A DNA stretch of 15,093 nucleotides from an uncultured bacterium (GTDB taxonomy: Bacteria > CAZSTA01): the NCBI GenBank assembly GCA_964609495.1, contig CAZSTA010000078.1, positions 1 through 15,093 of the forward strand, given 5' to 3'. Position numbers and translations under genes: made by a program. Every line of letters starts with the position of its first letter. Within the stretch, counting starts at the first letter, position 1. Shown here in pieces: positions 1 through 15,093 of this stretch. The notes beneath the pieces are model-generated. The model ran no database searches, was not told the origin of the DNA, and saw nothing but the letters and a program-made list of their open reading frames with translations.

Positions 1-157
1 AGAAACTTCCCCTCGGTACTTTGCAGGATATATAATATGATATAATATTAACATTCTATCGTGTAATTTTACAATAATATTCACTCATATATTTATCATA
101 CCACACAACAATCACAAAGGAACTCTTTTGATCAAAGGTATAATTTTTGCTTACTAT
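1..157 (+). repeat. Left copy of a direct repeat flanking the gvp cluster; the right copy is at 14081-14213. Positions 1-55 are identical to 14081-14135, then a 2-nt indel, a ~40-nt copy-1-specific insert, and ~85% identity over 106-157 versus 14161-14213.
   Basis: Direct visual alignment of the two ends of the window. The shared core is agaaacttcccctcggtactttgcaggatatataatatgatataatattaacatt. The window starts at the repeat, so it may extend further upstream. Confidence 0.85.
20..46 (+). promoter_or_regulatory. Promoter-like core inside the flank repeat. It has an extended -10 TGATATAAT at 38-46, a weak -35-like TTGCAG at 21-26 with a 14-nt spacer, and a second TATAAT at 138-143 next to the near-palindrome cttttgatcaaagg at 124-137. 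The TA-rich stretch could alternatively be read as an archaeal TATA box.
   Basis: Motif reading only: TGnTATAAT is the extended -10 consensus of sigma70 promoters. The motif lies upstream of the HTH_17 gene and gvpA. Confidence 0.4.
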
Positions 158-213
158 AGTCGTAGATGCGAGGAAGTGTGTAGTTTGTTGTATTTGGGGA
201 TGAGGAGGCGAGT

Positions 214-417
214 GTGATTAGTAAGGTTGTTTTAACACCCCGGGTTATTGCGGAATACTGCCAGGTAAGTAAGAGCGCAGTTTTAAAGTGGATCAAAGAT
301 AAGTGGTCATTATCGTATTGATGAGGAGAAATTTAGGGACTTCCTTAAGAAATATAATATGCCTATTAAGGAAGAATTTTTTGAACATAAATCTAACCAG
401 AAAGGGGGTGAAGAATA
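214..417 (+). pseudogene. Small MerR-superfamily HTH_17 (excisionase/AlpA-like) DNA-binding gene interrupted by a +1 frameshift near 302-306. Its stop codon (415-417) directly abuts the gvpA start.
   Basis: Frame 1 from GTG 214, with GGAGG SD at 205-209, reads VISKVVLTPRVIAEYCQVSKSAVLKWIKDKWSLSY*. Frame 2 from 302 reads [38 protein letters not shown]. Removing one nt around 304 yields a 68-aa HTH_17-like protein (..LKWIKDKGHYRIDEEKFRDFL..). This is either a true frameshift or a sequencing indel. Confidence 0.55.
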
Positions 418-624
418 GTGGCAGTAACAACCTCAATGGCTCCTTCAGGGTTAGCAGAGGTTCTCGACCGTATCCTGGATAAGGGTATCGTACTCGATGT
501 TTGGGTTAGAGTCTCTCTACTCGGCCTGGAGATCCTTGCTATTGAAGCAAGGGTAGTTCTTGCCGGTGTCGAGACCTACCTGAAGTATGCTGAAGCGGTT
601 GGCTTAACAGCTCCAGCAGCCTAA
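418..624 (+). CDS. gvpA: Major gas vesicle structural protein GvpA
   Basis: GTG start with SD AGGGGGTG 7 nt upstream. The protein contains [52 protein letters not shown], the canonical GvpA core. An ATG at 436 is an alternative start. Confidence 0.95.
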
Positions 625-741: not shown

Positions 742-1449
742 ATGGAGGACTTAGTTTTAGACCTTATCACCTATTATGGGGATAAAGTCTCAACGGTAGA
801 GGAACTAATCACTACTGCTTATTGTGCTATATTAAACTCGGACGAAAATTTTAATGGACTTGATAGAGAGAGGGAAACTCTGAAGATTAGATTATGCGAA
901 ATGCTGGCTAAAAATTGCTCCTTCCGAAGAAAAGATTTCAATAGTTTGATGGAGAAGATCCTTGCCGATTCTGAGACAAAAAGGGTAGCGATTCAGGAAG
1001 AGCAAAATCAGGTTAAGAAGGCTCTGGGGGAATATTTAGCCCAACAGAAAGAGCTAGCAACCTATCTAAAAGGAGAGCTAATAGGATTTGTACAGGGAAA
1101 CTCAGATAGGGGGCATGTTAAGGCAATAATAAATGAAATTAAGAATATGTATAGGGATAGGGGGGAACAAATTTTTGCCCTCCTACGTAATCTTCAGTTG
1201 TATATAGAGACTTTTCAGAAGGAACAGGAGAAGATAAATCATAAATTGCAGCGGCTTGTAGAGAGAGGTGAATCTTTAAAAATAGAAGACCTAAGACAGC
1301 TTGAGGCGGCTAAAAGTCGCGAGGAGAGAAAGGCTGAAAGAAAGCTAAGGCGGGAGGAAGTGGAAGGACTATTAGCTCATTTCAAGCAGGAACGATGGGA
1401 AAGAAGTTTTTATAGGAAAAATAAGAAATCAAAGAAAGGAGGAGAATAA
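742..1449 (+). CDS. Coiled-coil protein with a GvpC-like repeat unit; a probable gas-vesicle-associated structural or scaffold protein.
   Basis: ATG 742 is preceded by AGGGAG SD; the ORF-track start at 718 lacks an SD. Charged, heptad-rich sequence. The segment DFNSLMEKILADSETKRVAIQEEQNQVKKAL matches the repeat unit of the next ORF. Stop TAA 1447-1449 overlaps the next ATG (ATAATGA). Confidence 0.6.
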   Translation: MEDLVLDLITYYGDKVSTVEELITTAYCAILNSDENFNGLDRERETLKIRLCEMLAKNCSFRRKDFNSLMEKILADSETKRVAIQEEQNQVKKALGEYLAQQKELATYLKGELIGFVQGNSDRGHVKAIINEIKNMYRDRGEQIFALLRNLQLYIETFQKEQEKINHKLQRLVERGESLKIEDLRQLEAAKSREERKAERKLRREEVEGLLAHFKQERWERSFYRKNKKSKKGGE

Positions 1450-2504
1450 TGACTATCGGTCCTGGGATGAGAGAACTTGTGCAGGAAATTACCTCTTCCC
1501 ATAAGGAAAGAACAGAAACAGTTAAGGGAATAAGGGAGGAGGCAAAGCAAATGAGGGAAGAAGCAATGGATTTAATTAGAGATTTTCAAACTACCCGAAG
1601 TAATGAGAGCGTTCAGTTAAAGGAGGAGTTAACAGAGGGAAAAAGAGAAAGGAGCTCTCTTGTTAAAGGGATGCTAGAGGATTTTCAGAATTCAAGGGGA
1701 GAAGAAGCTACTCAAATGCGTAAAGATTTAGCTCAGGGAAGTAGCGAACGTCGTTCTGAAGTTGAGAAATTACAAGAGGATGCCCGGCAAAGCATAAAAG
1801 ATTTTCACGCCCAGCGTAAGGAAGTGGGTACTCAGTTGAGAAAGGATCTTTCTACAAGCACAGCCAATAGAAGATCTGAAGTAAAAGCACTGCTGAGTGA
1901 TGCTCAGGAAATGATAGGGGGATTCCAAAGTTCAAGGGGAGAGGCGAGTTCTGAATTGAGGAAGGAACTTTCTCAGAGCGTATCCAATAACAGGGCTGAG
2001 GTGGAAGACCTCAGGAGAAACGCTAAAGCGTTAGTAAAAGATTTTAATAACACCCGTATAGAGACAGGCAAAGAATTGAAGAATGAACTGACTAAGGATA
2101 AAGCTGAGAGATTATCTGAAGTTAGAAAAATGCGGGATGATTTTCGTAGGATACGCTCGGAAGTGAGAGCAGACTTAAAAGAGGTAGCGGTAGCCTGGCA
2201 GGGATTAACAAAACCTGTAGAAGTAAAGGAAGTTGAAGTAGAAGCTCCTCCCAAAGAAGCAGAGGTTCCTATAGAAGAGGAAACTCCAACGGTAGAAGAA
2301 GTAGTTTCCGAGGAAGGAGAACGGGATTTTGAGTCAGAACTTTTAGCAATTGTCAATCGACATCCCGAAGGAATAACCCTTGTGGAATCAGCTGAGAGAT
2401 TAGGTGTCGCTTCTGTCGTTCTTGGACGAGCCTCTAAGAGTCTCTTGGACAGTGGGAAGATTCGTAAGGAAGATAGATTCTACTTCCCGGTAACAAGCGA
2501 GTAG
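1449..2504 (+). CDS. GvpC-like repeat protein with at least five ~40-aa repeats (DFxxxRxExxxxLRKxLxxxxxxRRSEVxxL) followed by an acidic linker and a C-terminal winged-helix (BirA/MarR-like) domain.
   Basis: Repeats are visible in the translation: DFQTTRSNESVQLKEEL.., DFQNSRGEEATQMRKDL.., DFHAQRKEVGTQLRKDL.., GFQSSRGEASSELRKEL.., DFNNTRIETGKELKNEL... The C-terminus LLAIVNRHPEGITLVESAERLGVASVVLGRASKSLLDSGKIRKEDRFYF fits a winged-HTH pattern. Position directly downstream of gvpA matches where gvpC sits in cyanobacteria and haloarchaea. No direct sequence identity to known GvpC is claimed. Confidence 0.7.
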   Translation: MTIGPGMRELVQEITSSHKERTETVKGIREEAKQMREEAMDLIRDFQTTRSNESVQLKEELTEGKRERSSLVKGMLEDFQNSRGEEATQMRKDLAQGSSERRSEVEKLQEDARQSIKDFHAQRKEVGTQLRKDLSTSTANRRSEVKALLSDAQEMIGGFQSSRGEASSELRKELSQSVSNNRAEVEDLRRNAKALVKDFNNTRIETGKELKNELTKDKAERLSEVRKMRDDFRRIRSEVRADLKEVAVAWQGLTKPVEVKEVEVEAPPKEAEVPIEEETPTVEEVVSEEGERDFESELLAIVNRHPEGITLVESAERLGVASVVLGRASKSLLDSGKIRKEDRFYFPVTSE

Positions 2505-2913: not shown

Positions 2914-3138
2914 TATTCGCTCATATTGGAGTAGCGTGCTTAGCTAAAGATGTCTTTATTTCATAATCACCCTCCCCTAAACCCCTCCCATCGAGGGAGG
3001 GGAAAATGGGAAGACAGTTCTATCTGGATGTCCCCTCTCCCCTCAGTGGGAGAGGGATAGGGTGAGGGTGAAAATTATTTCTTTCGCTCATTAGATCAGT
3101 CTAGCGCACCTTATGCAAATATGAGCGTTAATATTAGA
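2911..3138. repeat. A 228-bp MITE/REP-like structured element. Terminal inverted repeats TAATATTCGCTCATATT (2911-2927) and its reverse complement AATATGAGCGTTAATATTA (3118-3136) enclose an inner imperfect inverted repeat (2967-2984 / 3054-3071) and two GC-rich hairpins: CCCCTCCC-atcga-GGGAGGGG (2982-3002) and CCCTCTCCC-ctcagt-GGGAGAGGG (3033-3056).
   Basis: Nested inverted repeats read directly. The GC-rich poly-C/poly-G tracts stand out in an AT-rich intergenic region between ORF-133 and gvpN. A third partial copy of TTCGCTCAT lies at 3084-3092. Confidence 0.5.
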
Positions 3139-3152
3139 AGAGGAGGAGGATT

Positions 3153-4055
3153 ATGCAGGAAGAGCCCACAGTGCTTACTGCCCAACCAAGTGCTGATTTT
3201 GTAGAGACACCTTATATAAAGGAGCTAACAAGTCGGGCTATCGACTATATCAGAGCTGGTTTTCCCGTACACTTCAGCGGCCCAGCAGGGGTAGGAAAAA
3301 CTACATTAGCTTTACATATGGCTGCTAAGCTGGGCCGCCCGATTATATTAATCGGTGGAGACCACGAATTTAATAGTTCTGATCTAGTTGGTGGACTCTA
3401 CGGCTATCGTAGAAGATATACAAAAGACAATTTTATCCGCTCAGTTCTCAAGACTGATGAGAGTATGACTTCCCATTGGATAGACAATCGTCTCACGGTT
3501 GCATGTCAACGTGGACTTACCCTTATCTATGATGAGTTTACCAGATCACGACCAGAGGCAAATAACGTGTTACTCTCTATATTAGAAGAGAAGCTCCTTC
3601 CCCTGCCTGCCGCTAGAGGAGGAGAGAATTACTTAAGGGTACATCCCGATTTTGCAGCTATATTTACCTCTAATCCTGAAGAGTATGCTGGAGTTTACAA
3701 TAGCCAAGATGCCCTACGTGACCGTATGATAGCTATAGAACTGGGTAATTTTGATGAGGAAACAGAAGTTGCTATTACCCAGGCAAAATCTAAGCTTCCC
3801 TTAGAAGACGCCCAGCGGATCGTTAATCTGGTGAGAAAAGTTAGAGAGGTTAAATCGAACAAGCTTACCCCTACCGTAAGAGCATGCATTATGATGGGAA
3901 AGGTATTGAAGTTAAAGGGTGCATCAGCTTTCAGTTATGACCATACTTTTAAGCAGATCTGTCAGGATATCCTTATGCCTGAGATTCCCAAGGAGGAGAG
4001 AGAAAAAATAAGAGAGGTGATAGAGGATGCTCTGCTACTTAAAGGAGGATCATAG
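3153..4055 (+). CDS. gvpN: Gas vesicle AAA+ ATPase GvpN
   Basis: Strong SD AGGAGGAGGA precedes the start. Walker A FSGPAGVGKTTLALHMAAKLGRP and Walker B LIYDEF are present. Size (300 aa) and motif spacing are typical of GvpN/CbbQ-type AAA_5 proteins. Confidence 0.9.
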   Translation: MQEEPTVLTAQPSADFVETPYIKELTSRAIDYIRAGFPVHFSGPAGVGKTTLALHMAAKLGRPIILIGGDHEFNSSDLVGGLYGYRRRYTKDNFIRSVLKTDESMTSHWIDNRLTVACQRGLTLIYDEFTRSRPEANNVLLSILEEKLLPLPAARGGENYLRVHPDFAAIFTSNPEEYAGVYNSQDALRDRMIAIELGNFDEETEVAITQAKSKLPLEDAQRIVNLVRKVREVKSNKLTPTVRACIMMGKVLKLKGASAFSYDHTFKQICQDILMPEIPKEEREKIREVIEDALLLKGGS

Positions 4056-4429: not shown

Positions 4430-4927
4430 ATGGCTGAAAAGGAAGAGAAGGATAGAATTGAGATAGACTTTTTTGGGGGACTCTTTAAAGAGATTGGGAA
4501 CCTTATTGATCGTGCCTCCAAGATGGGGGAGGAAGGATTTGAAGAAACAGGGGAGATAAAATTCCCCAAGGGAGGTAAGGCAGTATATGGTATTAGTGTA
4601 AGGACTCTAGCAGGTAAGCCAGTAATAGAGAGATTTGGGAATGTGAAGGAGACCTCTAAAGGTCCAGTGGTGGAAGAGGTTAGAGAGCCAATCGTTGATG
4701 TTTTTGACGAAAAAGATCATATCCTTGTTATTGCTGAATTGCCCGGTGTATCGGAAGAGGATATAAAAATCGAAGTTTCTGGAGATGTTTTTAACCTTAC
4801 CGCCTCTAGTAAAGGTAGGAAATATGCTAAGGAGCTCCTTCTGCCGGCTAAAGTAAAAGCAGAGCCCCTTAAGAGTTCCTACCGGAATGGAATTTTAGAA
4901 ATTACATTGGAAAAGATAGAGAGCTAG
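4430..4927 (+). CDS. Hsp20/alpha-crystallin-domain small heat-shock protein (GvpH-like)
   Basis: SD GAGGTGA precedes the start. The alpha-crystallin-domain signature VDVFDEKDHILVIAELPGVSEEDIKIEV...YRNGILEITLEK is present. Haloarchaeal GvpH is Hsp20-family (established knowledge). Confidence 0.85.
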   Translation: MAEKEEKDRIEIDFFGGLFKEIGNLIDRASKMGEEGFEETGEIKFPKGGKAVYGISVRTLAGKPVIERFGNVKETSKGPVVEEVREPIVDVFDEKDHILVIAELPGVSEEDIKIEVSGDVFNLTASSKGRKYAKELLLPAKVKAEPLKSSYRNGILEITLEKIES

Positions 4928-5013
4928 TGTCAACTTACCCCTACTGATTGTAACACGAAGTATAGACTGAATCAGGAGAGGTTTCCGTGCCTGATTTAAG
5001 AGGAGGTAAATGA

Positions 5014-7194
5014 ATGGCTATGCGGGCAACCAGGGATGATGTAAAAGCATTAAACCTTCGTGTTGCTGAGGCAAAACCTAAAGATGTTGGAAGGGGGATT
5101 ATACGGATAGACCCCCAGGACTTTGAGAAGATAGGGGTAGATGTAGGAGATATTATTCAAATTGAGGGAAAGAGAAGGACCGTAGCTAAGGTTATGCCCG
5201 CTTATCCTGAAGACCGTGGCAAGTCCATTATCCAGATGGATGGAATTTTACGGAGCAATGCCCAGATCTCTCTTGATGAAAAGGTAACTGTTCAAAAGAT
5301 TAGAAGTTCCCCGGCAGATAAGATAGTAATAAGTCCGTTGACTCTGACAAGATTAAGCCGGGAGAGTGACACTAGATATATCGGCACCCTCCTGGATGGA
5401 TTGCCCCTAATAGAGGGGGATATTATTAGAGCCAATCTATTTGGGACTCGTAGTCAGGATTTTACAGTTCTTAGTACTATCCCAAAGGGGGTAGTGCTGA
5501 TTAACCCAGGAACTATAATTGAAGTGAAAAAAAAGGAAGAGATAGAGGCTAAAGGGTCCAAAATTTCTTACGAAGATATTGGGGGGTTAAGTAAAGAATT
5601 ACAGAAGGTTAGAGAAATGATCGAGCTTCCTCTGAAATACCCTGAGATTTTTGAGCGTTTGGGGATAGACCCTCCAAAGGGAGTATTACTCTATGGACCT
5701 CCTGGATGTGGTAAGACGTTAATTGCCCGTGCTGTAGCGAATGAGACCTCGGCCTATTTTACCCATATTACTGGTCCAGAGATTATGGGGAAATATTATG
5801 GTGAGAGTGAGAGCCGACTGAGAATGGTTTTTGCAAAAGCACAAACTAATACACCTGCTATTATATTCATTGATGAAATCGATGCTATTGCCCCCAAAAG
5901 AGAGGAAATGGGAGGAGAAAAACAGGTAGAGAGGAGAGTAGTTGCTCAGCTGCTCTCTCTAATGGACGGATTAGAGTCACGTGGTAATGTAATCGTTATT
6001 GCTGCAACGAATATTCCTAATTCTATCGATCCTGCTTTAAGAAGACCAGGGAGATTTGATAGGGAAATTGAGATCAGTATCCCTGACCAAAGGGGACGCC
6101 TGGAGATTTTGCAGATTCATACCCGTGGTATGCCTCTAGCTCAGGATGTAGATTTAGCTCAGGATATAGATTTAGAAAAGTTATCCCAGATCACCCATGG
6201 TTTTGTTGGTGCTGATTTGGAAGCGTTATGTCGTGAGGCAGCGATGAATGTATTGAGGAGGATAATGCCGGATATTGATTTTCAATGGTGTGGGATTCCC
6301 TATGAGACTCTATTACAGCTCGAAGTAACAATGGCTGATTTTGGAGAGGCTTTAAAGGAAGTAGAACCTTCAGCTATCAGAGAGGTCTTTATTGAGATTC
6401 CAAATGTGAAATGGGAAGATGTAGGGGGTTTGGGATATATAAAGCAAAAGTTAATGGAAGCTGTAGAATGGCCATCTAAATATTCTATTCTATTTGAGAA
6501 GGCAAAGATAAGACATCCGAAGGGAATTCTCTTTTCTGGACCTCCAGGTACAGGTAAAACACTAGTGGCTAAAGCATTGGCTAATGAAAGTGGGGTTAAT
6601 TTTATCTCAGTTAAAGGTCCTGAATTGATGAGCAAATATATAGGGGAATCAGAAAGAGGGGTAAGAGAGGTGTTTAGGAAGGCAAAACAGGCCAGTCCCT
6701 GTATTATCTTCTTCGATGAATTTGAATCGTTGGTCCCTGAGAGGGGGCCCTCCTCGGATTCTCAGGTTACAGAGAGGGTGATTAGTCAATTCCTTACCGA
6801 GCTCGATGGACTGGAAGAACTGAAAGGTGTACTAGTTCTAGCTGCTACTAATAGAAGAGACCTTATTGATCCTGCTATTTTAAGACCTGGAAGGTTTGAT
6901 TTTATTCTGGGATTTCCACTCCCTGATGAAAGCACAAGGGAAGAGATCTTCAAGGTTCATACGAGAGGAAAACCTCTGGCTCCTGATGTTAGTCTAAAAG
7001 GACTAGCTAGGAAGATGGATGATATGTCCGGTGCAGATATAGAAGCCATCTGTCGAGAAGCTTCTATGATAGCAATTAGAGAAGCTATTAGAGATGAATG
7101 TATGGATAATTTTCGGATCTCTCAAAAGTATTTTGATATGGCTATTGAATGGTTGAAGAGGCAGAAAGGAGAAATGGATGTCTTACCAGGGTAG
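5014..7194 (+). CDS. CDC48/VCP-like AAA+ ATPase with a CDC48_N domain and two AAA domains.
   Basis: The N-domain reads [27 protein letters not shown]. Walker A motifs are GPPGCGKT (D1) and GPPGTGKT (D2); Walker B motifs are IIFIDEID and IIFFDEFE. The protein is 726 aa, with SD AGGAGGT 6 nt upstream. The first 9 codons and RBS are shared with gvpJ. Confidence 0.9.
6139..6174 (+). repeat. In-frame 18-nt tandem duplication (gctcaggatGtagattta / gctcaggatAtagattta) encoding [12 protein letters not shown] in the D1-D2 linker of the CDC48-like gene.
   Basis: Seen directly; one mismatch between copies. Confidence 0.8.
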
Positions 7195-7924
7195 ATATTT
7201 CTATGGGATTATAGAGGAACCACAGTTTAAGAAATTTGAATTTTCTGGAGTGGGAGGGGAAGAGGTATATACAACTAGTTACCAGAATCTTTCCGCAGTT
7301 GTAAGTAATATTGAAGTTGGAGAGATAGATCCTATTAGAAAGAATGTACTTGCCCATACAGTAGTTCAGGATGAGGTTCTAAAAATTTATGATCTTCTTC
7401 CTATGGGCTTTGGAATGATAACCAATAGTGGGGAAGAGGTTATGAAGTTATTAGAGAAAAATTATCAGACGATTCTAAAAGAACTAAACCGACTTAAGGG
7501 TAAGATAGAGGGCGAGGTAAAAATCTTCTGGGACGAGGAGGCTATAATGAGAGAACTTCAGAACGAAAATCCGAAGTTCTCCAAGCTTAAAGCCAAGATA
7601 AGAGAAGCTTCATCTCCCGTTGAAGCGCAGAATCTACTTGCGGAAGCTGGTAGGTTGATAGAGCATATTGCTATGGAATGGAAGACTAAATATGCCGAGC
7701 GTGCCTATAATATCCTTAAAGACCTATCTATCGAGGCTAAGCTAAATGAGCCTTTTGGAGTTAAGAATATCCTAAATGCTTCTTTTCTGCTGGAAAGGAC
7801 TATGGAGAATAAATTTAAAGAAGAAATCTACCGATTAGATAGTGAGTATCAGGATAGACTAGATTTCAAATATGTAGGTCCCTTACCACCCTATAATTTC
7901 GTCAAAGTAAAACTGGAGCTGTAA
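7178..7924 (+). CDS. gvpF: Gas vesicle protein GvpF/GvpL family
   Basis: [10 protein letters not shown]...[17 protein letters not shown]...[26 protein letters not shown] matches the GvpF/L family pattern. The start overlaps the cdc48 3' end by 17 nt. Confidence 0.85.
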
Positions 7925-7925
7925 G

Positions 7926-8165
7926 ATGCTTGGACTCTCACTTTTATATGATATTTTTATAGGTGTTCCCTTTACCCTTGGAGTGAAAATACTGGAGAAA
8001 CTGAGGGATGAGATAGATAAGGAGCGCCTTATAACGGAAGATTCGATCAAGAAGAGGCTTCAGCAGCTACAACTATTGTTACAGGATGGAGAGATAAGTG
8101 AGGAAGAGTATGAAGAGTTAGAAGCTAAACTTATTGAAAGACTAAGAGCGGTAAAGGGAATATAG
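7926..8165 (+). CDS. gvpG: Gas vesicle protein GvpG
   Basis: A 79-aa protein with a hydrophobic N-terminus LLYDIFIGVPFTLGVKILEKL and the C-terminal EISEEEYEELEAKLIERL motif typical of GvpG. Confidence 0.8.
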   Translation: MLGLSLLYDIFIGVPFTLGVKILEKLRDEIDKERLITEDSIKKRLQQLQLLLQDGEISEEEYEELEAKLIERLRAVKGI

Positions 8166-8251: not shown

Positions 8252-8274
8252 ATGAAAGTTAAGGAGGTAAATAA

Positions 8275-8652
8275 ATGGCTATGCAGGCAACCAGGGATGG
8301 ATCTTCTACCCTGGTGGATGTAATTGATCGCGTATTGGATAAAGGGCTTGTTATTAATGCTGATATCTGTGTTTCAGTAGCCGGGGTCGAACTTTTAGGG
8401 ATAAAGGTGAGGGCGGCTTTAGCTTCTTTCGAGACGGCAGCCAAGTATGGGTTAGAATTTCCTAGTGGAACAAATTATGAAACAGCTGCCTGGAAAGAGG
8501 TAAAGGTAGCTAAAGAGGAGTGTCCACAATGTGGAAAGAGGGTTCCTGCCGAAGAACTTATGAATGAAGGCTGTCCATGGTGTGGATGGATGAGTGCAAA
8601 GGCAAAGAAAGCTAAGCCTAAGCTAGCCCCTGAAATATCGGTAGAGGGATAG
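8275..8652 (+). CDS. gvpJ: GvpJ/GvpA-family protein with a C-terminal zinc-ribbon extension.
   Basis: N-terminus MAMQATRDGSSTLVDVIDRVLDKGLVINADICVSVAGVELLGIKVRAALASFETAAKYGL is the GvpA/J core. C-terminus CPQCGKRVPAEELMNEGCPWCGW carries four Cys arranged as CxxC...CxxC. Confidence 0.85.
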   Translation: MAMQATRDGSSTLVDVIDRVLDKGLVINADICVSVAGVELLGIKVRAALASFETAAKYGLEFPSGTNYETAAWKEVKVAKEECPQCGKRVPAEELMNEGCPWCGWMSAKAKKAKPKLAPEISVEG

Positions 8653-9932: not shown

Positions 9933-10256
9933 ATGGCTATTGATATTGATGCAGATAACCTCAAACAGGGTGTTTTGGGTTTGGTAATCGCCCTTGTGGA
10001 AATTATTAGGGATGCCCTGAAGATTCAAGCATTTAAAAGGGTGGAAAGCGGCATTCTTACCGAGGAAGAATGTGAGAGGTTAGGAGAAGCACTTATGGAT
10101 TTAGATATTGCAATCGAGGAGATAAAGGAAGAGCAGGGGATTACAGAATCTGTTCAGGCTATAAGGGATGGATTAGATGAGATTGTCGATGATGTAGTAG
10201 ATAGAATGGTTAACCCTGAAAGATGGAAAGAAGAGGCGAAAGAAAAAGGAATATAA
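9933..10256 (+). CDS. gvpK: Gas vesicle protein GvpK
   Basis: LGLVIALVEIIRDALKIQAFKRVESGILTEEECERLGEALMDLD matches the GvpK family pattern. Confidence 0.85.
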   Translation: MAIDIDADNLKQGVLGLVIALVEIIRDALKIQAFKRVESGILTEEECERLGEALMDLDIAIEEIKEEQGITESVQAIRDGLDEIVDDVVDRMVNPERWKEEAKEKGI

Positions 10257-10265
10257 GGGATGGAT

Positions 10266-11435
10266 ATGGAAGAGATATTTTATGCTGTGTTGGCTTTACA
10301 TATAGCTGGTAAACCTGTTAATAGAGAGAATATAAAAGCTATCCTTAAAGCTGTAGGGACACCGATCGATGAGAAGGCGCTTGATGCTATGGTACTCTTT
10401 GTTGAGACTTTGGAAGCTGCTCGTAGGGAGAGACAGAGGACTATAGATCCCAGAATCATCAAATTTCTAACAGATGAGCTAGAGCGACAGAAGGTAAAGA
10501 CAGAGCGACTGGAAGCCCTTTTAGATGAACTAACCAAATCTGTTACTCTATCAGAGGCTTATGAGTTTATACCTTCTGAGCGAGATACGGCTGAGGCAGA
10601 AGAAATAACTATTGAAGAAACTGAAAGTATCCCCCGGTATGAGGGAAGATATGTGTACGGAGTGGCTATGGATGGGAGAGAGGTGAATCTTGGTCCGATA
10701 GGAATAGATGGTAATGAGGTCTATACTATACCTTATAGGGGCCTTTCAGTTATTGTGCATAACTGTCCTCCTGAACCATACCAATCTAACGATGATGAAA
10801 TAGTAAAAAACTGGATAAGAACCCATCAGAATGTCCTTGATGTGGCAAAGGAACAATTCGGTACTATTATACCTATGGGCTTTGATATCATACTACAACC
10901 TGATGATGCTACTTCTCCCGATCAAGTTGTAAGAGATTGGCTTAAGGAAGATTATGATAGGCTCTTGACTGTGATGGAAAAGATAGAGGGTAGGGATGAG
11001 TACGGAGTACAGATTTTCTATGATCCAAAGGTGATAGGTGAGCTTATTGCCAAAAATAATGGGGAGCTCGAAAAATTAAAGGAGGAAATAGCTACCAAAT
11101 CGCCAGGGCTTGCCTATATGTATAAACAGAAGATGGAAAAGCTAATAAAGGAAGAAATGGAAAGGCTTGCTGAAGAATGGTTTAGAGATTTCTATAGTAG
11201 GATTAAAAGGCATTGTGATGATATTGTTATAGAGAAAACTAAAAAAGTTGAGAAGGATAAGATAATGCTAATTAATCCCTCCTGTCTTGTAGTCAAAGAG
11301 AATGTTGAGAGCTTAGGTGAAGAGCTAGAAAAGATCAATAGTATAGAAGGATTCTCTGTCCGTTTTACCGGTCCATGGCCTCCATACAGCTTTGTCTCCA
11401 AGCCAACGATAACAACCTCTAATATAGGAGGATAA
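10266..11435 (+). CDS. gvpL: GvpL/GvpF-family protein with an N-terminal domain (~60 aa) resembling the ribosomal stalk P1/P2 (L12e) dimerisation domain. ATG 10260 is an alternative start.
   Basis: The GvpF/L core is RYVYGVAMDG..VYTIPYRGLSVIVHN...NVLDVAKEQFGTIIPMGFDII. The N-terminus MEEIFYAVLALHIAGKPVNRENIKAILKAVGTPIDEKALDAMVLFVETLEAA aligns by eye with archaeal P1, (M)EYIYAALLLHSAGKEI.EENIKAVLEAAG..VDE.R.KALVAAL. The AGGGA SD sits 5 nt before ATG 10266. Confidence 0.8.
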   Translation: MEEIFYAVLALHIAGKPVNRENIKAILKAVGTPIDEKALDAMVLFVETLEAARRERQRTIDPRIIKFLTDELERQKVKTERLEALLDELTKSVTLSEAYEFIPSERDTAEAEEITIEETESIPRYEGRYVYGVAMDGREVNLGPIGIDGNEVYTIPYRGLSVIVHNCPPEPYQSNDDEIVKNWIRTHQNVLDVAKEQFGTIIPMGFDIILQPDDATSPDQVVRDWLKEDYDRLLTVMEKIEGRDEYGVQIFYDPKVIGELIAKNNGELEKLKEEIATKSPGLAYMYKQKMEKLIKEEMERLAEEWFRDFYSRIKRHCDDIVIEKTKKVEKDKIMLINPSCLVVKENVESLGEELEKINSIEGFSVRFTGPWPPYSFVSKPTITTSNIGG

Positions 11436-11525: not shown

Positions 11526-12617
11526 ATGGAACCTACTAGAGATACACATGCTACATTAGTAGACCTCTTGGATAGAATTCTAGATAAAGGCTTAATACTT
11601 AATGCGGATCTAATTATCCATATAGCTGGCATCCCTCTTTTGGGAGTTAACCTAAAGGCTTGCCTTGCTGGAATGGAAACGATGCTAAAGTATGGTATCT
11701 GGCAAGACTGGGATGAGGCACAGAGGGTGATTGCCACTGAAGAAGAGAGGAAGAAGAAAAAAGTTCCCTTAGCTCCACAGGAAGATGTCTTCCTAAAGAT
11801 ATTTGCCTCCCTGTGGTACAGTAAAGGTATCTATCATACCCGGAGACCGGGGCATCTATACATCACCGATAGAAGGATATTCTTATTTAGAAAGGAACCA
11901 GCTGAAGTACTATTTCATTGTATGTATAAGGAGATAAAAGGAATCAGTACTGAAAGAAAGGCAAATATTACTGGCAAAGAGACGGATTATCTCTATCTAT
12001 GGCTTAACTCAGGAGAGATCGTTAAGTTGCATCCGACAGATGCTCAGCTTGTTAGAGAGACAATAGAAGAAAGAATGAAATTACTGGGGCTAGAGTTGAA
12101 GAAAGATATCCCCCTTCCTATACTCGATGAGGTAGCAATAAAGTTTTTATCTGAGGAAGAAGAAATTATCCATTCGGGAAAGATATCTTATCTAGTGGCT
12201 GAATCAAGACCGGGGGGTATTACCACCGAGGTATGGAAGCCGGGACATTTATATCTGACTGATAGGAGGTTAGTCTGGTGGTACGATTTCGATGGCAGGA
12301 TTGCTTCTGAATTACCTCTTGAGAAAATTCTGGGAGTTGAAATAAAAAGAAAAGATTTGGGTGATATGTTAAAGAATAAATCTGTTTTAGATTTGGCTTA
12401 TAAGAATGGTAGTAATAGAATTGCCTCTTTCTCTAGTAGTACGGAGGGACTAAATGAGTGGGAAAAAATAATAGGTGAGGTTATGATAGAATACGACAAG
12501 ACAGAAGAGTGCCCCAGGTGTGGCAGAAGGGCACCTATAGATAAGCTGCTTAAAGAAGGCTGTTCAATCTGTGGCTGGGTAAGCCCCAGGCTTAGAAAAA
12601 AGGAGATAGAAGCTTAA
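11526..12617 (+). CDS. Fusion protein combining an N-terminal GvpA/J/M-family domain, two GRAM/PH-like repeats and a C-terminal zinc ribbon.
   Basis: N-terminus [57 protein letters not shown] is the GvpA-family core. The two repeats are ..RRPGHLYITDRRIFLF.. and ..WKPGHLYLTDRRLVWWY.., matching the GRAM/bPH 'G.LYLT..RL.F' signature. C-terminus is CPRCGRRAPIDKLLKEGCSICGW. Confidence 0.8.
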   Translation: MEPTRDTHATLVDLLDRILDKGLILNADLIIHIAGIPLLGVNLKACLAGMETMLKYGIWQDWDEAQRVIATEEERKKKKVPLAPQEDVFLKIFASLWYSKGIYHTRRPGHLYITDRRIFLFRKEPAEVLFHCMYKEIKGISTERKANITGKETDYLYLWLNSGEIVKLHPTDAQLVRETIEERMKLLGLELKKDIPLPILDEVAIKFLSEEEEIIHSGKISYLVAESRPGGITTEVWKPGHLYLTDRRLVWWYDFDGRIASELPLEKILGVEIKRKDLGDMLKNKSVLDLAYKNGSNRIASFSSSTEGLNEWEKIIGEVMIEYDKTEECPRCGRRAPIDKLLKEGCSICGWVSPRLRKKEIEA

Positions 12618-12875
12618 ATGGATATTGATGAAATAATTAGAAAAACCCAAGAAACTTTTACTAGACTTACCAAGATACCTATCGATGGAATTACTGGTAT
12701 ATCAAAGACTGACCAGGGGTGGATGGTAGCACTAGAAGCACTGGAGAGAAGAGCCATACCTGATACTATGGATATACTAGGACTTTATGAGGTTCGCCTC
12801 GACAATGATGGGAATCTTCTTAATTTTGAGAGAAAGAAACTCCGTAAACGCGGTGAAACAGAGGGGGGAGAGTAG
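12618..12875 (+). CDS. gvpO: Gas vesicle protein GvpO
   Basis: DQGWMVALEALERRAIPDTMDILGLYEVRLDNDGNLLNFERKKLRKRG matches the GvpO signature (GW.v.vE..E....PDT.d.L..Y.v.lD.dG.L....R...Y.RG). ATG overlaps the upstream stop (TAAATG). Confidence 0.8.
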   Translation: MDIDEIIRKTQETFTRLTKIPIDGITGISKTDQGWMVALEALERRAIPDTMDILGLYEVRLDNDGNLLNFERKKLRKRGETEGGE

Positions 12876-12876
12876 A

Positions 12877-13110
12877 ATGAGTGCATGGAATAAATGTCCC
12901 AGTTGTGGAATCACTGTCAGTGGGATTGCCGATTACTGTCCTAATTGTGGAGAACCCTGGACTATAGAATGTCAAAATTGCGGAATAACTTGGCGATTCT
13001 GGGAAAATTATAAATTTTGTCCCAATTGTGGAGCTAAGGTAGAAAAGCGTGGTGTCACCAGAGGAAAGCAGAAGGTAGGACCAGGGGTTGGAAAACCAAA
13101 GGTTATTTAA
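12877..13110 (+). CDS. Double zinc-ribbon protein with four CxxCG pairs.
   Basis: MSAWNKCPSCG..YCPNCGEPWTIECQNCG..FCPNCGAKV. ATG 12877 is one nt after the gvpO stop, with a G-rich SD. The ORF-track start at 12787 would overlap gvpO and is unlikely. Confidence 0.6.
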   Translation: MSAWNKCPSCGITVSGIADYCPNCGEPWTIECQNCGITWRFWENYKFCPNCGAKVEKRGVTRGKQKVGPGVGKPKVI

Positions 13111-13147
13111 CCCAAGCTCCGCATTTTAGGAACGCATCACAATTTGT

Positions 13148-13416
13148 GGCTCTTTGAGGGAAAGTGTGAAGGGAAGTTAAGCACATTCGAGGAGGATATG
13201 TTGTCGGAAATTATCAAAGTTTCGATATCCGTATCCTCTCTGTTTGATGAGCTTAATCTCGTTATTGATCCCCTCGGCTAAACCATTGTTTATCCTCTCT
13301 ATAAAGTAATTCAAACTCTCCTCCCACCAAGAGCGAAGAGTATTTACGAATTTGAATAAAGTTCTTACCGCTTGCTCTACCTTATGACACCAAGAGGAGA
13401 AAAATCTCTCTTCGCT
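13148..13416 (-). mobile_element. Remnant of an ISL3-family insertion sequence: the 3' (C-terminal) transposase fragment on the minus strand (13177-13416) plus its terminal inverted repeat reading GGCTCTTTGAGGGAAAGTGTGAAGG inward from 13148. The other end is absent.
   Basis: Minus-strand translation gives SWWEESLNYFIERINNGLAEGINNEIKLIKQRGYGYRNFDNFRQHILLECA*. I recognise the 'EG.NNKIK.IKR.AYGYRNF.NFR.RIL' tail as ISL3 (DDE_Tnp_ISL3) transposases. Upstream frames are broken by stops. The GGCTCTT terminus matches my recollection of ISL3 inverted repeats. No reverse-complement inverted-repeat copy is found at higher coordinates. Confidence 0.6.
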
Positions 13417-13480
13417 TTATCCCATCCCTTGATCTTCTCAAAGATAGGGCGAAATTCCTCCTTCAAGAAATGAGTTCTAA

Positions 13481-13693
13481 GCAAATAGATTTAGTTCTTC
13501 ATATATTCCTAAGGAGGAGATAACCGATCTAGCGGGAGATATGTCCTTAGAAGAGAGATTAGAATTATCTGAGAAAAAGATAATCGAGGGCGCTCTAAAA
13601 GAGGTGGGAGGAAATCAAAGCCGGGCTGCCAAGATGTTAGGTATATCCCGATATAAATTGCGTTATCGAATGCAGAAGTATGATCTACTATAG
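13481..13693 (+). pseudogene. C-terminal fragment (Fis-type HTH_8) of a sigma-54-dependent NtrC-family transcriptional activator.
   Basis: ..MSLEERLELSEKKIIEGALKEVGGNQSRAAKMLGISRYKLRYRMQKYDLL* matches the C-terminal HTH of NtrC/NifA-type activators. No AAA sigma-54 domain is found upstream in any frame. ATG 13541 has a GGGAG motif immediately upstream, so a 50-aa stand-alone product is possible but unlikely. Confidence 0.55.
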
Positions 13694-13759
13694 TAGGTTG
13701 TGTGTTTTTACACTATATGTGGGAAATCACACACATATTATAATCCATTACGTGAAGTT

Positions 13760-13786
13760 CCCCGAGGCTTGCCTCGGGGTTTTCTT
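13760..13786 (+). terminator. Rho-independent terminator: a 9-bp perfect GC stem CCCCGAGGC-tt-GCCTCGGGG followed by TTTTCTT.
   Basis: Read directly; the T-run follows on the plus strand. A second hairpin ATATGTG..CACATAT lies at 13715-13738. Confidence 0.75.
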
Positions 13787-14080
13787 GGCATGATTATATA
13801 ACCTAGCTATCCTCTCGATATGTTTCCCTAATGGTGCAGGAGAGTATCATCTATTACCATAAAACCTTCCTTAGTGTTCACTCCCCTTCTTGCTAAAGAA
13901 GACATCTCTGAAGAAAGATTGCTTTTGTTACCACTACTGAGGAAAATTCTACTATGGATATCACTTCTTACTTCCTCTTCCTCACATCTCCCCCATCTGT
14001 GTTAATTTCCATAAATGTATTTAATATCACTTTTCTATTTCAAGGCATACATCTTTAAGTGATAGTTATATTGATTTTGC

Positions 14081-14213
14081 AGAAACTTCCCCTCGGTACT
14101 TTGCAGGATATATAATATGATATAATATTAACATTTTCTATCGTGTTGCCTTTGCAATATAACAATCGCAGAGGAACTCTTTTGATTAAAGGTATGATAT
14201 TTGCTCTTTATAG
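14081..14213 (+). repeat. Right copy of the flank direct repeat. It carries the same extended -10 TGATATAAT at 14118-14126.
   Basis: See the 1-157 entry. Confidence 0.85.
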
Positions 14214-14335
14214 ATGTTAGACGACTCAAGTACTACCTAAGTGCATATATCTACTATTTTAACTTCTGATATCTAAAAGCAGGGAATATTTCTCCCCTTA
14301 AAGTTAGGATATAGTGTTAAGGAGGGGCAGATGTA

Positions 14336-14467
14336 ATGGTTCCAGAGAAGCTTTATAAGATCGGAGAAGTTGTGAGGTACAGTAGTTTTTACAGGCGAGT
14401 CATTCATAATTATACCCAGATCGGGTTGATCAGATCATCTTTATCAGCCCAGCGGGATAAATTTTAG
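14336..14467 (+). CDS. Tiny (43 aa) MerR-superfamily/HTH_17-like DNA-binding ORF immediately downstream of the right repeat copy; possibly truncated.
   Basis: MVPEKLYKIGEVVRYSSFYRRVIHNYTQIGLIRSSLSAQRDKF. The IGE(V/L)..(pause)..R.I..Y..IG pattern resembles MerR/Xis-type HTH. AGGAGGGG SD lies at 14320-14327. Its arrangement after the repeat mirrors the 214-417 gene after the left repeat. Confidence 0.4.
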   Translation: MVPEKLYKIGEVVRYSSFYRRVIHNYTQIGLIRSSLSAQRDKF

Positions 14468-14472
14468 ATGAG

Positions 14473-14673
14473 ATGCTCGCTTTTTTTGATCTTTGTGCTG
14501 TGGACTACATAATCTTTCCTTTTCGCAGTAAGGGGGTGTTAGATCGAGTTAGAGCTGCTTTGCGATCCAGCCGACTGATGAGAGAATTACGAAGACGCAA
14601 TCAGGAACTTGTTATTTTGAAGGGAATATCTGATATAGCTAATCGATCTTCAAGTTTAGGTGAGCTATTATAG
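14473..14673 (+). pseudogene. Short ORF whose C-terminal half resembles the coiled-coil leader into a GAF domain (ELRRRNQELVILKGISDIANRSSSLGELL*). Probable truncated N-terminus of a GAF-containing sensor or sigma-54 activator.
   Basis: Pattern recognition only. The motif 'L..EIS.AL.SSLDL.ELL' is common at GAF-domain starts in NifA/FhlA-type regulators and histidine kinases. The frame stops after 66 aa and downstream frames are broken. Confidence 0.25.
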
Positions 14674-15015
14674 AGATCACATTGCGATTCTGCACTAAAC
14701 CCTAATAATGAATTAGTGTTGGAAATAAATATTTTCAAGTTCGCTTATAGTGAGTGCTTTCTACTTTCAGATCTTTGCATTTAGCTACGGAGAGAGCTTC
14801 TAAAAGGCAGTTATAATGTGATTCAATATTTGGAAATCTTGAAGTAAATGGGGGAGCATAAAGATTAAGGAATCGCAGTCCAATTATATCAGTCAGTTCA
14901 GTCATCCAAATTGTAAGAAGTTGAATCGCTATTTTTCTCTCTATAAGCTAATCATAGACCTATTGTTTCCAAGATTATGTGACATCTATAAATATAAGGA
15001 AAGGGGGGAAAGAAA

Positions 15016-15093
15016 ATGGCAAATGCCCAGATTCTAGCTGTTGAAGATGAGAAAATCGTAGCTGAGAACATACGAGACAGGTTGAAAAGTTTG
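15016..15093 (+). CDS. Response-regulator receiver domain at its 5' end, truncated by the window edge.
   Basis: MANAQILAVEDEKIVAENIRDRLKSL shows the typical 'ILVVEDE' receiver start. AAGGGGGG SD lies 7 nt upstream. Confidence 0.6.
   Translation, partial: MANAQILAVEDEKIVAENIRDRLKSL

Follow-up and report, generated by a model that had tools for sequence, protein, structure and literature searches.

Remnants of a sigma-54 activator gene, an ISL3 transposase gene, and a receiver-GAF regulator gene at the right flank of a gas vesicle gene cluster from an uncultured bacterium

RESULTS AND DISCUSSION

Gene fragments in the right flank of the gvp cluster

The window analyzed here is a whole stretch of 15,093 bp of DNA from an uncultured bacterium (contig CAZSTA010000078.1 of assembly GCA_964609495.1); it spans an entire contig, whose two ends are ends of the assembly. 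It carries a gas vesicle (gvp) cluster on the plus strand, as recognized by Pfam, followed at 13.1 to 15.0 kb by a flank that is the subject of this report. In this flank, an earlier note had described two open reading frames (ORFs) as decayed regulatory genes, the tail of an NtrC-type sigma-54 activator and a fragment leading into a GAF domain. Both are indeed remnants of regulatory genes, the first a tail with an HTH_8 domain and the second a stub running from a receiver (REC) domain into a GAF domain with an in-frame stop codon.

The open frame at positions 13481 to 13693 encodes a peptide containing YIPKEEITDLAGDMSLEERLELSEKKIIEGALKEVGGNQSRAAKMLGISRYKLRYRMQKYDLL, and its translation matches the Pfam family HTH_8 with an E value of 3.3e-15 over profile positions 2 to 42 of 42, which is the complete domain. 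In a word-indexed search of 5.8 billion proteins with this tail, the sole homolog among the matches listed was P0001 (91% identity), a 94-residue ORF cut by the end of L001, a metagenome contig of 2,289 bp from JGI. P0001 begins with LRNVIERAFILCDGDEIKDRNLPLAIPSSKYIPK, which in sigma-54 activators forms the end of the AAA+ lid (AAA_lid_14, a weak match with an E value of 0.0015), and the presence of the lid motif LRNVIERAFILCDGDEI upstream of the same tail bears out the proposed NtrC-type origin. The 193 bases that run from position 13501 through the stop codon agree with L001 positions 90 to 285 at 185 sites (96% DNA identity). The number of surviving codons given earlier, about 50 to 65, is consistent with the approximately 64 codons found here, but the homology to the L001 activator gene begins at about 13494 to 13501 and not at 13481. 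More distant matches to the tail, with identities of 29 to 51% in scans of genome and metagenome contigs, are all C termini of sigma-54 enhancer-binding proteins (EBPs), and five distant EBP relatives read as long ORFs in which a PAS or GAF domain is combined with AAA+ and HTH_8 domains. Scans of genome and metagenome contigs with P0001 gave no close relative but L001, with all others at most 51% identical, and a scan of viral contigs with the tail found nothing. Apart from P0001, the best matches to the tail itself show only 40 to 43% identity. The AAA+ sigma-54 interaction domain, with its Walker A/B and GAFTGA motifs, is absent, as the three frames upstream of 13494 are closed or are occupied by ISL3 sequence on the opposite strand. 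Judged from its sequence, the tail is a genuine 3' remnant of an NtrC-type sigma-54 EBP gene. A conserved stand-alone small HTH_8 gene, which the earlier note had named as the alternative, was rejected because the sole close homolog belongs to a longer ORF; no free-standing homolog was found among the matches listed.

Directly to the left of the tail, the minus strand encodes the C terminus of an ISL3 transposase, which was overlooked in the earlier note. Positions 13177 to 13314 match DDE_Tnp_ISL3 with an E value of 2.6e-13, and a conceptual translation that joins both frames matches profile positions 147 to 240 of 240 with an E value of 8.8e-24; the N-terminal three-fifths or so of the DDE domain is lost together with all that preceded it. 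A candidate terminal repeat starting with GGCTCTTTGAGGG lies 37 nt after the stop codon of the Zn-ribbon gene (13110). Inverted repeats of ISL3 elements typically begin with GGCTCTT, and the candidate end at 13148 is located immediately beyond the 3' end of the transposase remnant. The window contains no second copy of this candidate repeat within three mismatches and no target site duplication. Because it is truncated and frameshifted and lacks a second end and a target duplication, the remnant cannot move. The transposase gene reads leftward and the activator gene rightward, and both are without their 5' parts at a common junction at about 13490 to 13501. This arrangement would be explained most simply if a single deletion had eliminated the 5' ends of the two genes at a time when an ISL3 copy lay between the activator gene and the last of the gvp genes.

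Downstream of the tail, positions 13760 to 13779 form eight base pairs, seven of which are G-C, followed by TTTTCTT. No other terminator-like site in the window is as strong, in line with the strong terminator reported previously, and L001 retains the site with a single mismatch in the stem. The 105-nt stretch from 13691 to 13795 folds at -36.7 kcal/mol (z = -4.4), and a search of positions 12900 to 15093 against Rfam gave only a chance match to a microRNA model (E value of 0.57) over the hairpin at 13698 to 13734. The site at 13760 is also the first terminator-like site on the plus strand after the gvp genes, with none between 6702 and 13760; transcripts reading through from the gvp genes would extend over the ISL3 remnant and the HTH_8 ORF to end at 13760 to 13779. 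This terminator of the former activator gene is likely the sole part of the flank still in use.

The second fragment, the 66-codon ORF at 14473 to 14673, exists as described, but it has no Pfam match, even when it is extended past its stop codon. A phmmer search of 1.84 billion representatives gave 15 matches, and the nonrepetitive ones align with receiver domain ends and linkers, placing the fragment at residues ~75 to 165 of proteins with an N-terminal receiver domain. In the best match, P0128 (REC, residues 5 to 125; GAF, 159 to 298; HD_5, 317 to 481), residues 104 to 165 show 47% identity over 62 residues with the translation of window positions 14485 to 14670. Since the GAF domain of P0128 starts at residue 159, the ORF ends about 7 residues into GAF, and it consists of alpha4-beta5-alpha5 of the receiver (DLCAVDYIIFPF through RVRAALR), a coiled-coil linker, and the first ~7 GAF residues. 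The entry into a GAF domain was thus read correctly in the earlier note, but the ORF is not the whole of the fragment: its N-terminal half is the end of a receiver, and the alignments with P0124, P0132, and P0136 extend upstream through the in-frame TAA at 14458 to 14460 as far as IIFISPAG at 14434. The phospho-acceptor part of the receiver is absent, with only beta4/alpha4-beta5-alpha5 retained (14434 to 14560) and no Pfam Response_reg match, and tblastn revealed no GAF body after 14673. HisKA or SpoIIE outputs are found in other matches that share this linker, which leaves several candidates for the output domain of the parent protein. In L001, the counterpart of the small ORF at 14336 to 14467 is frameshifted, and the gene called there is only 30 amino acids long; the window ORF is therefore probably a remnant as well. 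The gene that starts at 15016 has just 26 codons before the contig end, and its intactness cannot be judged. A 56-codon ORF without a Pfam match (14735 to 14905, minus strand) lies between the REC-GAF stub and this last gene.

The coordinates of the features are collected in Table 1.

TABLE 1 Features of the window
Feature	Position (nt)	Strand	Basis
Sigma-54 EBP gene, 3' remnant, ~64 codons, linker plus complete HTH_8	~13494/13501-13693	+	Pfam, L001 alignment
Remnant of ISL3 transposase gene, C-terminal ~100 codons, read in frames 13180-13416 and 13380-13493 with one frameshift	13177-13493	-	Pfam
Probable outer terminal inverted repeat of ISL3-family element, GGCTCTTTGAGGGAAAGTG	13148-13166	+	Position beyond transposase 3' end
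Imperfect hairpin TGTGTG...CACACA, just 3' of the stop codon, partly duplicated in L001	13697-13735	+	Fold, alignment
Intrinsic terminator of former activator gene	13760-13786	+	Stem plus T run, kept in L001
Receiver-linker-GAF regulator remnant, ~80 codons, in-frame TAA at 14458-14460	14434-14673	+	phmmer, domain maps, tblastn
43-codon ORF, weak MerR-type helix-turn-helix (HTH) N terminus	14336-14467	+	Pfam MerR_1, E value of 0.076, below cutoff
Gene start, 26 codons, ILAVEDE..., receiver-like look, cut by contig end	15016-15093	+	Read from sequence; too short for Pfam
Repeat A1, contig start	1-~199	+	Colinear with L001 694-~855, then jump to L001 2045
Repeat A2, second copy of contig-start sequence	14081-14262	+	Self-alignment, three-way alignment with L001
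gvpA	418-624	+	Pfam
GvpN-like AAA_5	3153-4055	+	Pfam
Hsp20	4430-4927	+	Pfam
CDC48-type double AAA	5014-7194	+	Pfam
GvpF/L	7178-7924	+	Pfam
GvpG	7926-8165	+	Pfam
GvpJ-like	8275-8652	+	Pfam
GvpK	9933-10256	+	Pfam
GvpF/L, second	10260-11435	+	Pfam
GvpA-domain protein with GRAM/PH repeats	11526-12617	+	Pfam
GvpO	12618-12875	+	Pfam
Zn-ribbon protein	Stop at 13110	+	Pfam

Related gvp clusters

The names on homologs of the gvp proteins are those of Chloroflexota, Methanophagales, Methanothrix, Atribacteria, and Clostridium. Three of the clusters compared, L028, L029, and L030, are about 70% identical to that of the window. In these three, a conserved gene of 227 to 230 amino acids that belongs to no Pfam family lies 3' of the Zn-ribbon gene (L028, 11672 to 12355; L029, 11567 to 12259). 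The window shows no trace of this gene and has instead the gap from 13110 to 13148 and then the ISL3 remnant.

Several further observations were made within the cluster. The listed 107-amino-acid ORF at 12787 to 13110 overlaps gvpO, and its relatives align a true start of the Zn-ribbon protein at about 12880 (MSAWNKCP...). A 38-nt repeat with 95% identity, at 5001 to 5038 and 8262 to 8299, covers the ribosome binding site and first codons of the genes for the CDC48-type AAA protein and the GvpJ-like protein, which are unrelated. A GC-rich palindromic element starting with CCCTCTCCCACGAGGGGAGAGGG is located at 2966 to 3072, between the gene at 2512 to 2913 and the gvpN-like gene; L001 holds two inverted copies of it (979 to 1066, minus strand, and 1495 to 1583, plus strand) flanking a MerR-like stub, and it is probably a small mobile or repetitive extragenic palindrome (REP)-like repeat.

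Repeat A, the contig start, and the closest relative

The sequence at the start of the window recurs in the right flank. Positions 1 to 55 are 100% identical to 14081 to 14135, and positions 107 to 159 share 85% identity with 14161 to 14213; the two copies, A1 and A2, are direct repeats that bracket the gvp cluster at a distance of 14,080 bp. L001 is colinear with the right flank in two segments (L001 90 to 900 with 13501 to 14262 and L001 1156 to 1364 with 14259 to 14473) and then enters sequence 93 to 98% identical to window positions 140 to 369, the leader just upstream of gvpA. The order in L001 is activator tail, spacer, A, and gvpA leader (98% identical to window 163 to 369), and in this closest relative the activator gene is thus found upstream of the gvpA leader and not downstream of the cluster. 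The comparison with relatives proposed in the earlier note, a search for the activator gene and its synteny with gvp genes, has in this way linked an EBP gene to a gvpA leader in L001. A three-way alignment revealed that A1 tracks the single A copy of L001 as far as TTATAGATG, from where it skips 1.2 kb to L001 position 2045, the leader of a small HTH gene and gvpA, while A2 keeps the continuation into the HTH and REC stubs.

Exactly 55 nt separate the contig start from the first position at which A1 and A2 differ. A de Bruijn assembler run with k = 55 would break a contig in this way at a branch, and the coincidence suggests that the contig start is an assembly graph break inside the repeat. 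A circular or tandem contig was rejected, as positions 14136 to 15093 do not match 56 to 1013 past the shared 55 nt. A scan of viral contigs with repeat A found nothing.

The small HTH_17-type gene upstream of gvpA (~213 to 416) is split over three frames compared with its intact 112-amino-acid ortholog in L025, another gvp locus; its lesion is a gap of ~10 residues plus a frameshift after KWIKDK. The same lesion is present in L001 (98% identity; 2097 to 2251 and 1711 to 2003), which carries tandem copies. The earlier suggestion that small HTH proteins drive the cluster does not agree with the split state of this gene.

L001 also contains, at 901 to 1155, a 255-nt insertion resembling a miniature inverted-repeat transposable element, with terminal inverted repeats GTAGTTTCAAA and TTTGAAACTAC and TTAA flanks; window positions 14258 to 14262 represent its uninterrupted TTAA site. 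In addition, a promoter-like unit, GAGTATTGACAATCTCTATTTTTTATGATATGCTATAA, occurs three times in L001 (1362 to 1438 and 1634 to 1682) and not in the window, beginning where the homology of L001 to the REC stub ends.

Origin of the flank

The flank from 13.1 to 15.0 kb is probably nonfunctional debris of insertion sequence (IS)-associated rearrangements. A sigma-54 activator gene would have lost all but its last ~64 codons and its terminator, the break being the direct junction at ~13490 to 13501 with the internally truncated, opposite-facing ISL3 transposase gene, and a receiver-GAF regulator gene would have been left as a stub of ~80 codons with an internal stop codon, fused to the weak MerR-like HTH stub; none of these fragments would be expected to regulate anything. 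The events that truncated the transposase and activator genes probably also removed the 227- to 230-amino-acid gene from the window, and its presence in L028, L029, and L030 and absence here fit the deletion picture. The biology is ordinary IS-associated gene decay.

Several points weigh against this account. The single-deletion history is one that we infer from the geometry only, and neither this ISL3 element nor the activator gene was found in an intact form from which the breakpoints could be mapped. The 50-codon HTH_8 ORF (13541 to 13693, ATG start) is intact and has its own start codon and terminator, and it differs from L001 by only two synonymous and two nonsynonymous changes, which are too few to judge selection, so that a recent truncation and a retained function are indistinguishable. 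In addition, the window comes from a metagenome assembly, and the order of segments across repeat A could mix strains.

The value of these results is mainly corrective. The flank should be annotated as pseudogene debris, comprising the ISL3 remnant, the EBP tail, and the HTH and REC-GAF stubs, and it is not to be read as evidence on the regulation of this gas vesicle cluster. Only one point may bear on regulation, namely, that in L001 the gvpA leader is immediately preceded by a sigma-54 activator gene. To our knowledge, the linkage of activator genes with gvpA has hardly been studied outside Serratia.

Sigma-54 control and alternative explanations

The explanation that fares best beside the debris account, and one that we hold at somewhat under even chances, is that the window carries a partial duplicate: there would be two copies of the segment consisting of tail, spacer, and A, of which the left one would contain an intact activator gene possibly controlling the cluster and the one in the window would be dead. 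It agrees with the anatomy of the debris but reverses the conclusion of the earlier note that the cluster may have lost sigma-54 control. The position of the contig start, as at a k = 55 graph branch, points in this direction, as does the order in L001, where tail, spacer, and A precede the gvpA leader; the course of A1, which equals the A copy of L001 up to TTATAGATG before its 1.2-kb jump, indicates an L001-like layout as the origin. The segment of tail, spacer, and A in the window would then be a second copy of the region preceding gvpA, so an intact activator copy may lie beyond the left end, and by analogy with L001, the sequence to the left of the contig may be the spacer and an activator gene. 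However, the protein search retrieved only P0001 among the matches listed and no full-length activator belonging to the assembly of the window, although other proteins of the contig are in the database; a copy cut at a contig end would share too few words to be found. Furthermore, L001 ends in a tandem repeat before gvpA, and its link to gvpA is inferred.

The loss of a cognate GvrA-like sigma-54 activator, after which the cluster would run from sigma-70-type promoters, is an unlikely alternative. GvrA of Serratia is an NtrC-family regulator of gvpA1 that acts with a consensus sigma-54 site (PMC4982088), and within the 15 kb available here, only the tail of an activator gene is present. A promoter scan with TGGCACG-N4-TTGCW, in which GG and GC were required in register, detected no -24/-12 site with at least 10 of 12 matches anywhere in the window, and sigma-70-like hexamers are present in the repeats. 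The absence of -24/-12 elements noted earlier by eye is thus reproduced, the best sites having 9 of 12 matches at chance frequency (two found versus 2.4 expected), but it says nothing about loss. The counts of promoter-like sites are likewise at the level of shuffled sequence. The contig starts inside a repeat and so leaves the region upstream of gvpA unassembled, which does not allow a loss of sigma-54 control to be concluded; an intact activator gene just outside the window, named in the earlier note as evidence against a loss, is even favored by the closest relative, whose activator gene is located upstream of the gvpA leader. In the stretches seen beside five more distant clusters, no EBP gene was found that would mark sigma-54 control as ancestral; one flank was seen per locus, with L025 and L027 covered for as much as 10 kb on the upstream side of gvpA and L028, L029, and L030 for 2 to 3 kb downstream of the cluster. 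The neighboring regulator genes in these loci encode an intact HTH_17 protein and an OmpR-type regulator (L025) and a REC-GerE regulator (L028). The cognate-looking activator of the earlier note is linked to GvrA by family only.

A weak GG-N10-GC motif also speaks against such a loss, as it is kept in all three A copies. It reads AGGTATGATATTTGCT at 14190 to 14205 in A2 (9 of 12 matches) and at 829 to 844 in L001, and the A1 version, AGGTATAATTTTTGCT at 133 to 148, has 8 of 12 matches with GG-N10-GC kept. All three copies have a good TTGCT -12 half. The motif has the activator gene on its upstream side and the gvpA leader on its downstream side, but it is no more frequent than expected by chance and is a lead only.

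It is improbable that the contig is an assembly artifact, a chimera in which repeats link different strains and the fragment junctions have no biological reality. The contig is assembled from a metagenome and starts inside a repeat, and A1 is distinguished from A2 by indels of a kind that strain variants might show; however, the ISL3/activator junction and the REC stub are located in unique sequence and not at repeat edges, and part of the REC stub (14434 to 14472) is also present in L001, an independent sample.

It is very improbable that the 50-amino-acid HTH_8 ORF yields a small DNA-binding protein of the Fis type, which might compete, for instance, for the sites of a full-length activator. 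In favor of this reading, the ORF is intact, has a GGAG 2 nt before its ATG and its own terminator, and would be cotranscribed with the gvp genes, from which no plus-strand terminator separates it. Against it, the ATG corresponds to a Met codon inside the longer L001 gene, no free-standing homolog was listed by the word-indexed search, the spacing from GGAG to ATG is very short, and the dimerization regions that lie upstream of the HTH in NtrC and Fis are gone. Fainter still is the prospect that A1, A2, the tail, and the spacer mark a gvp cluster duplicated or inserted by recombination at the target region of the activator, with the 50-amino-acid peptide competing with a full-length activator encoded to the left of the contig; if this were true, a competitor peptide cotranscribed with the gvp operon up to the old terminator would exert negative feedback on gas vesicle expression.

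Comparison with known systems

The remnants in the window can be set beside intact members of their families. Like ISL3-family IS elements, the transposase remnant has the C-terminal 94 positions of the DDE_Tnp_ISL3 profile and a plausible terminal repeat past its stop codon, but unlike them, it is truncated inside the DDE domain and frameshifted and has neither a second end nor a target duplication. The receiver-GAF stub is 47% identical over 62 residues to P0128, a representative of the REC-GAF-HD-GYP regulators, and has in common with it the last part of REC, the coiled-coil linker, and the first helix of GAF, whereas the phospho-acceptor part of REC, the GAF body, and the output domain are lacking and an in-frame stop codon is present. 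The 50-codon ORF resembles Fis-like small HTH_8 proteins in its small size and HTH_8 fold and differs from them in lacking the N-terminal arm and dimerization helices and in having no conserved stand-alone homolog among those found. As in NtrC-family EBPs, the tail has a complete Fis-type HTH_8 domain, and its 91%-identical homolog has an AAA+ lid upstream; in contrast to these EBPs, an AAA+ domain, a GAFTGA loop, and a sensor domain are all absent from the window. The gvpA1 gene of Serratia has a consensus sigma-54 promoter, while no consensus promoter of this kind precedes gvpA in the window. Like gvrA, which lies within the gvp locus of Serratia sp. ATCC 39006 (PMC4982088), the EBP gene of L001 adjoins a gvpA leader.

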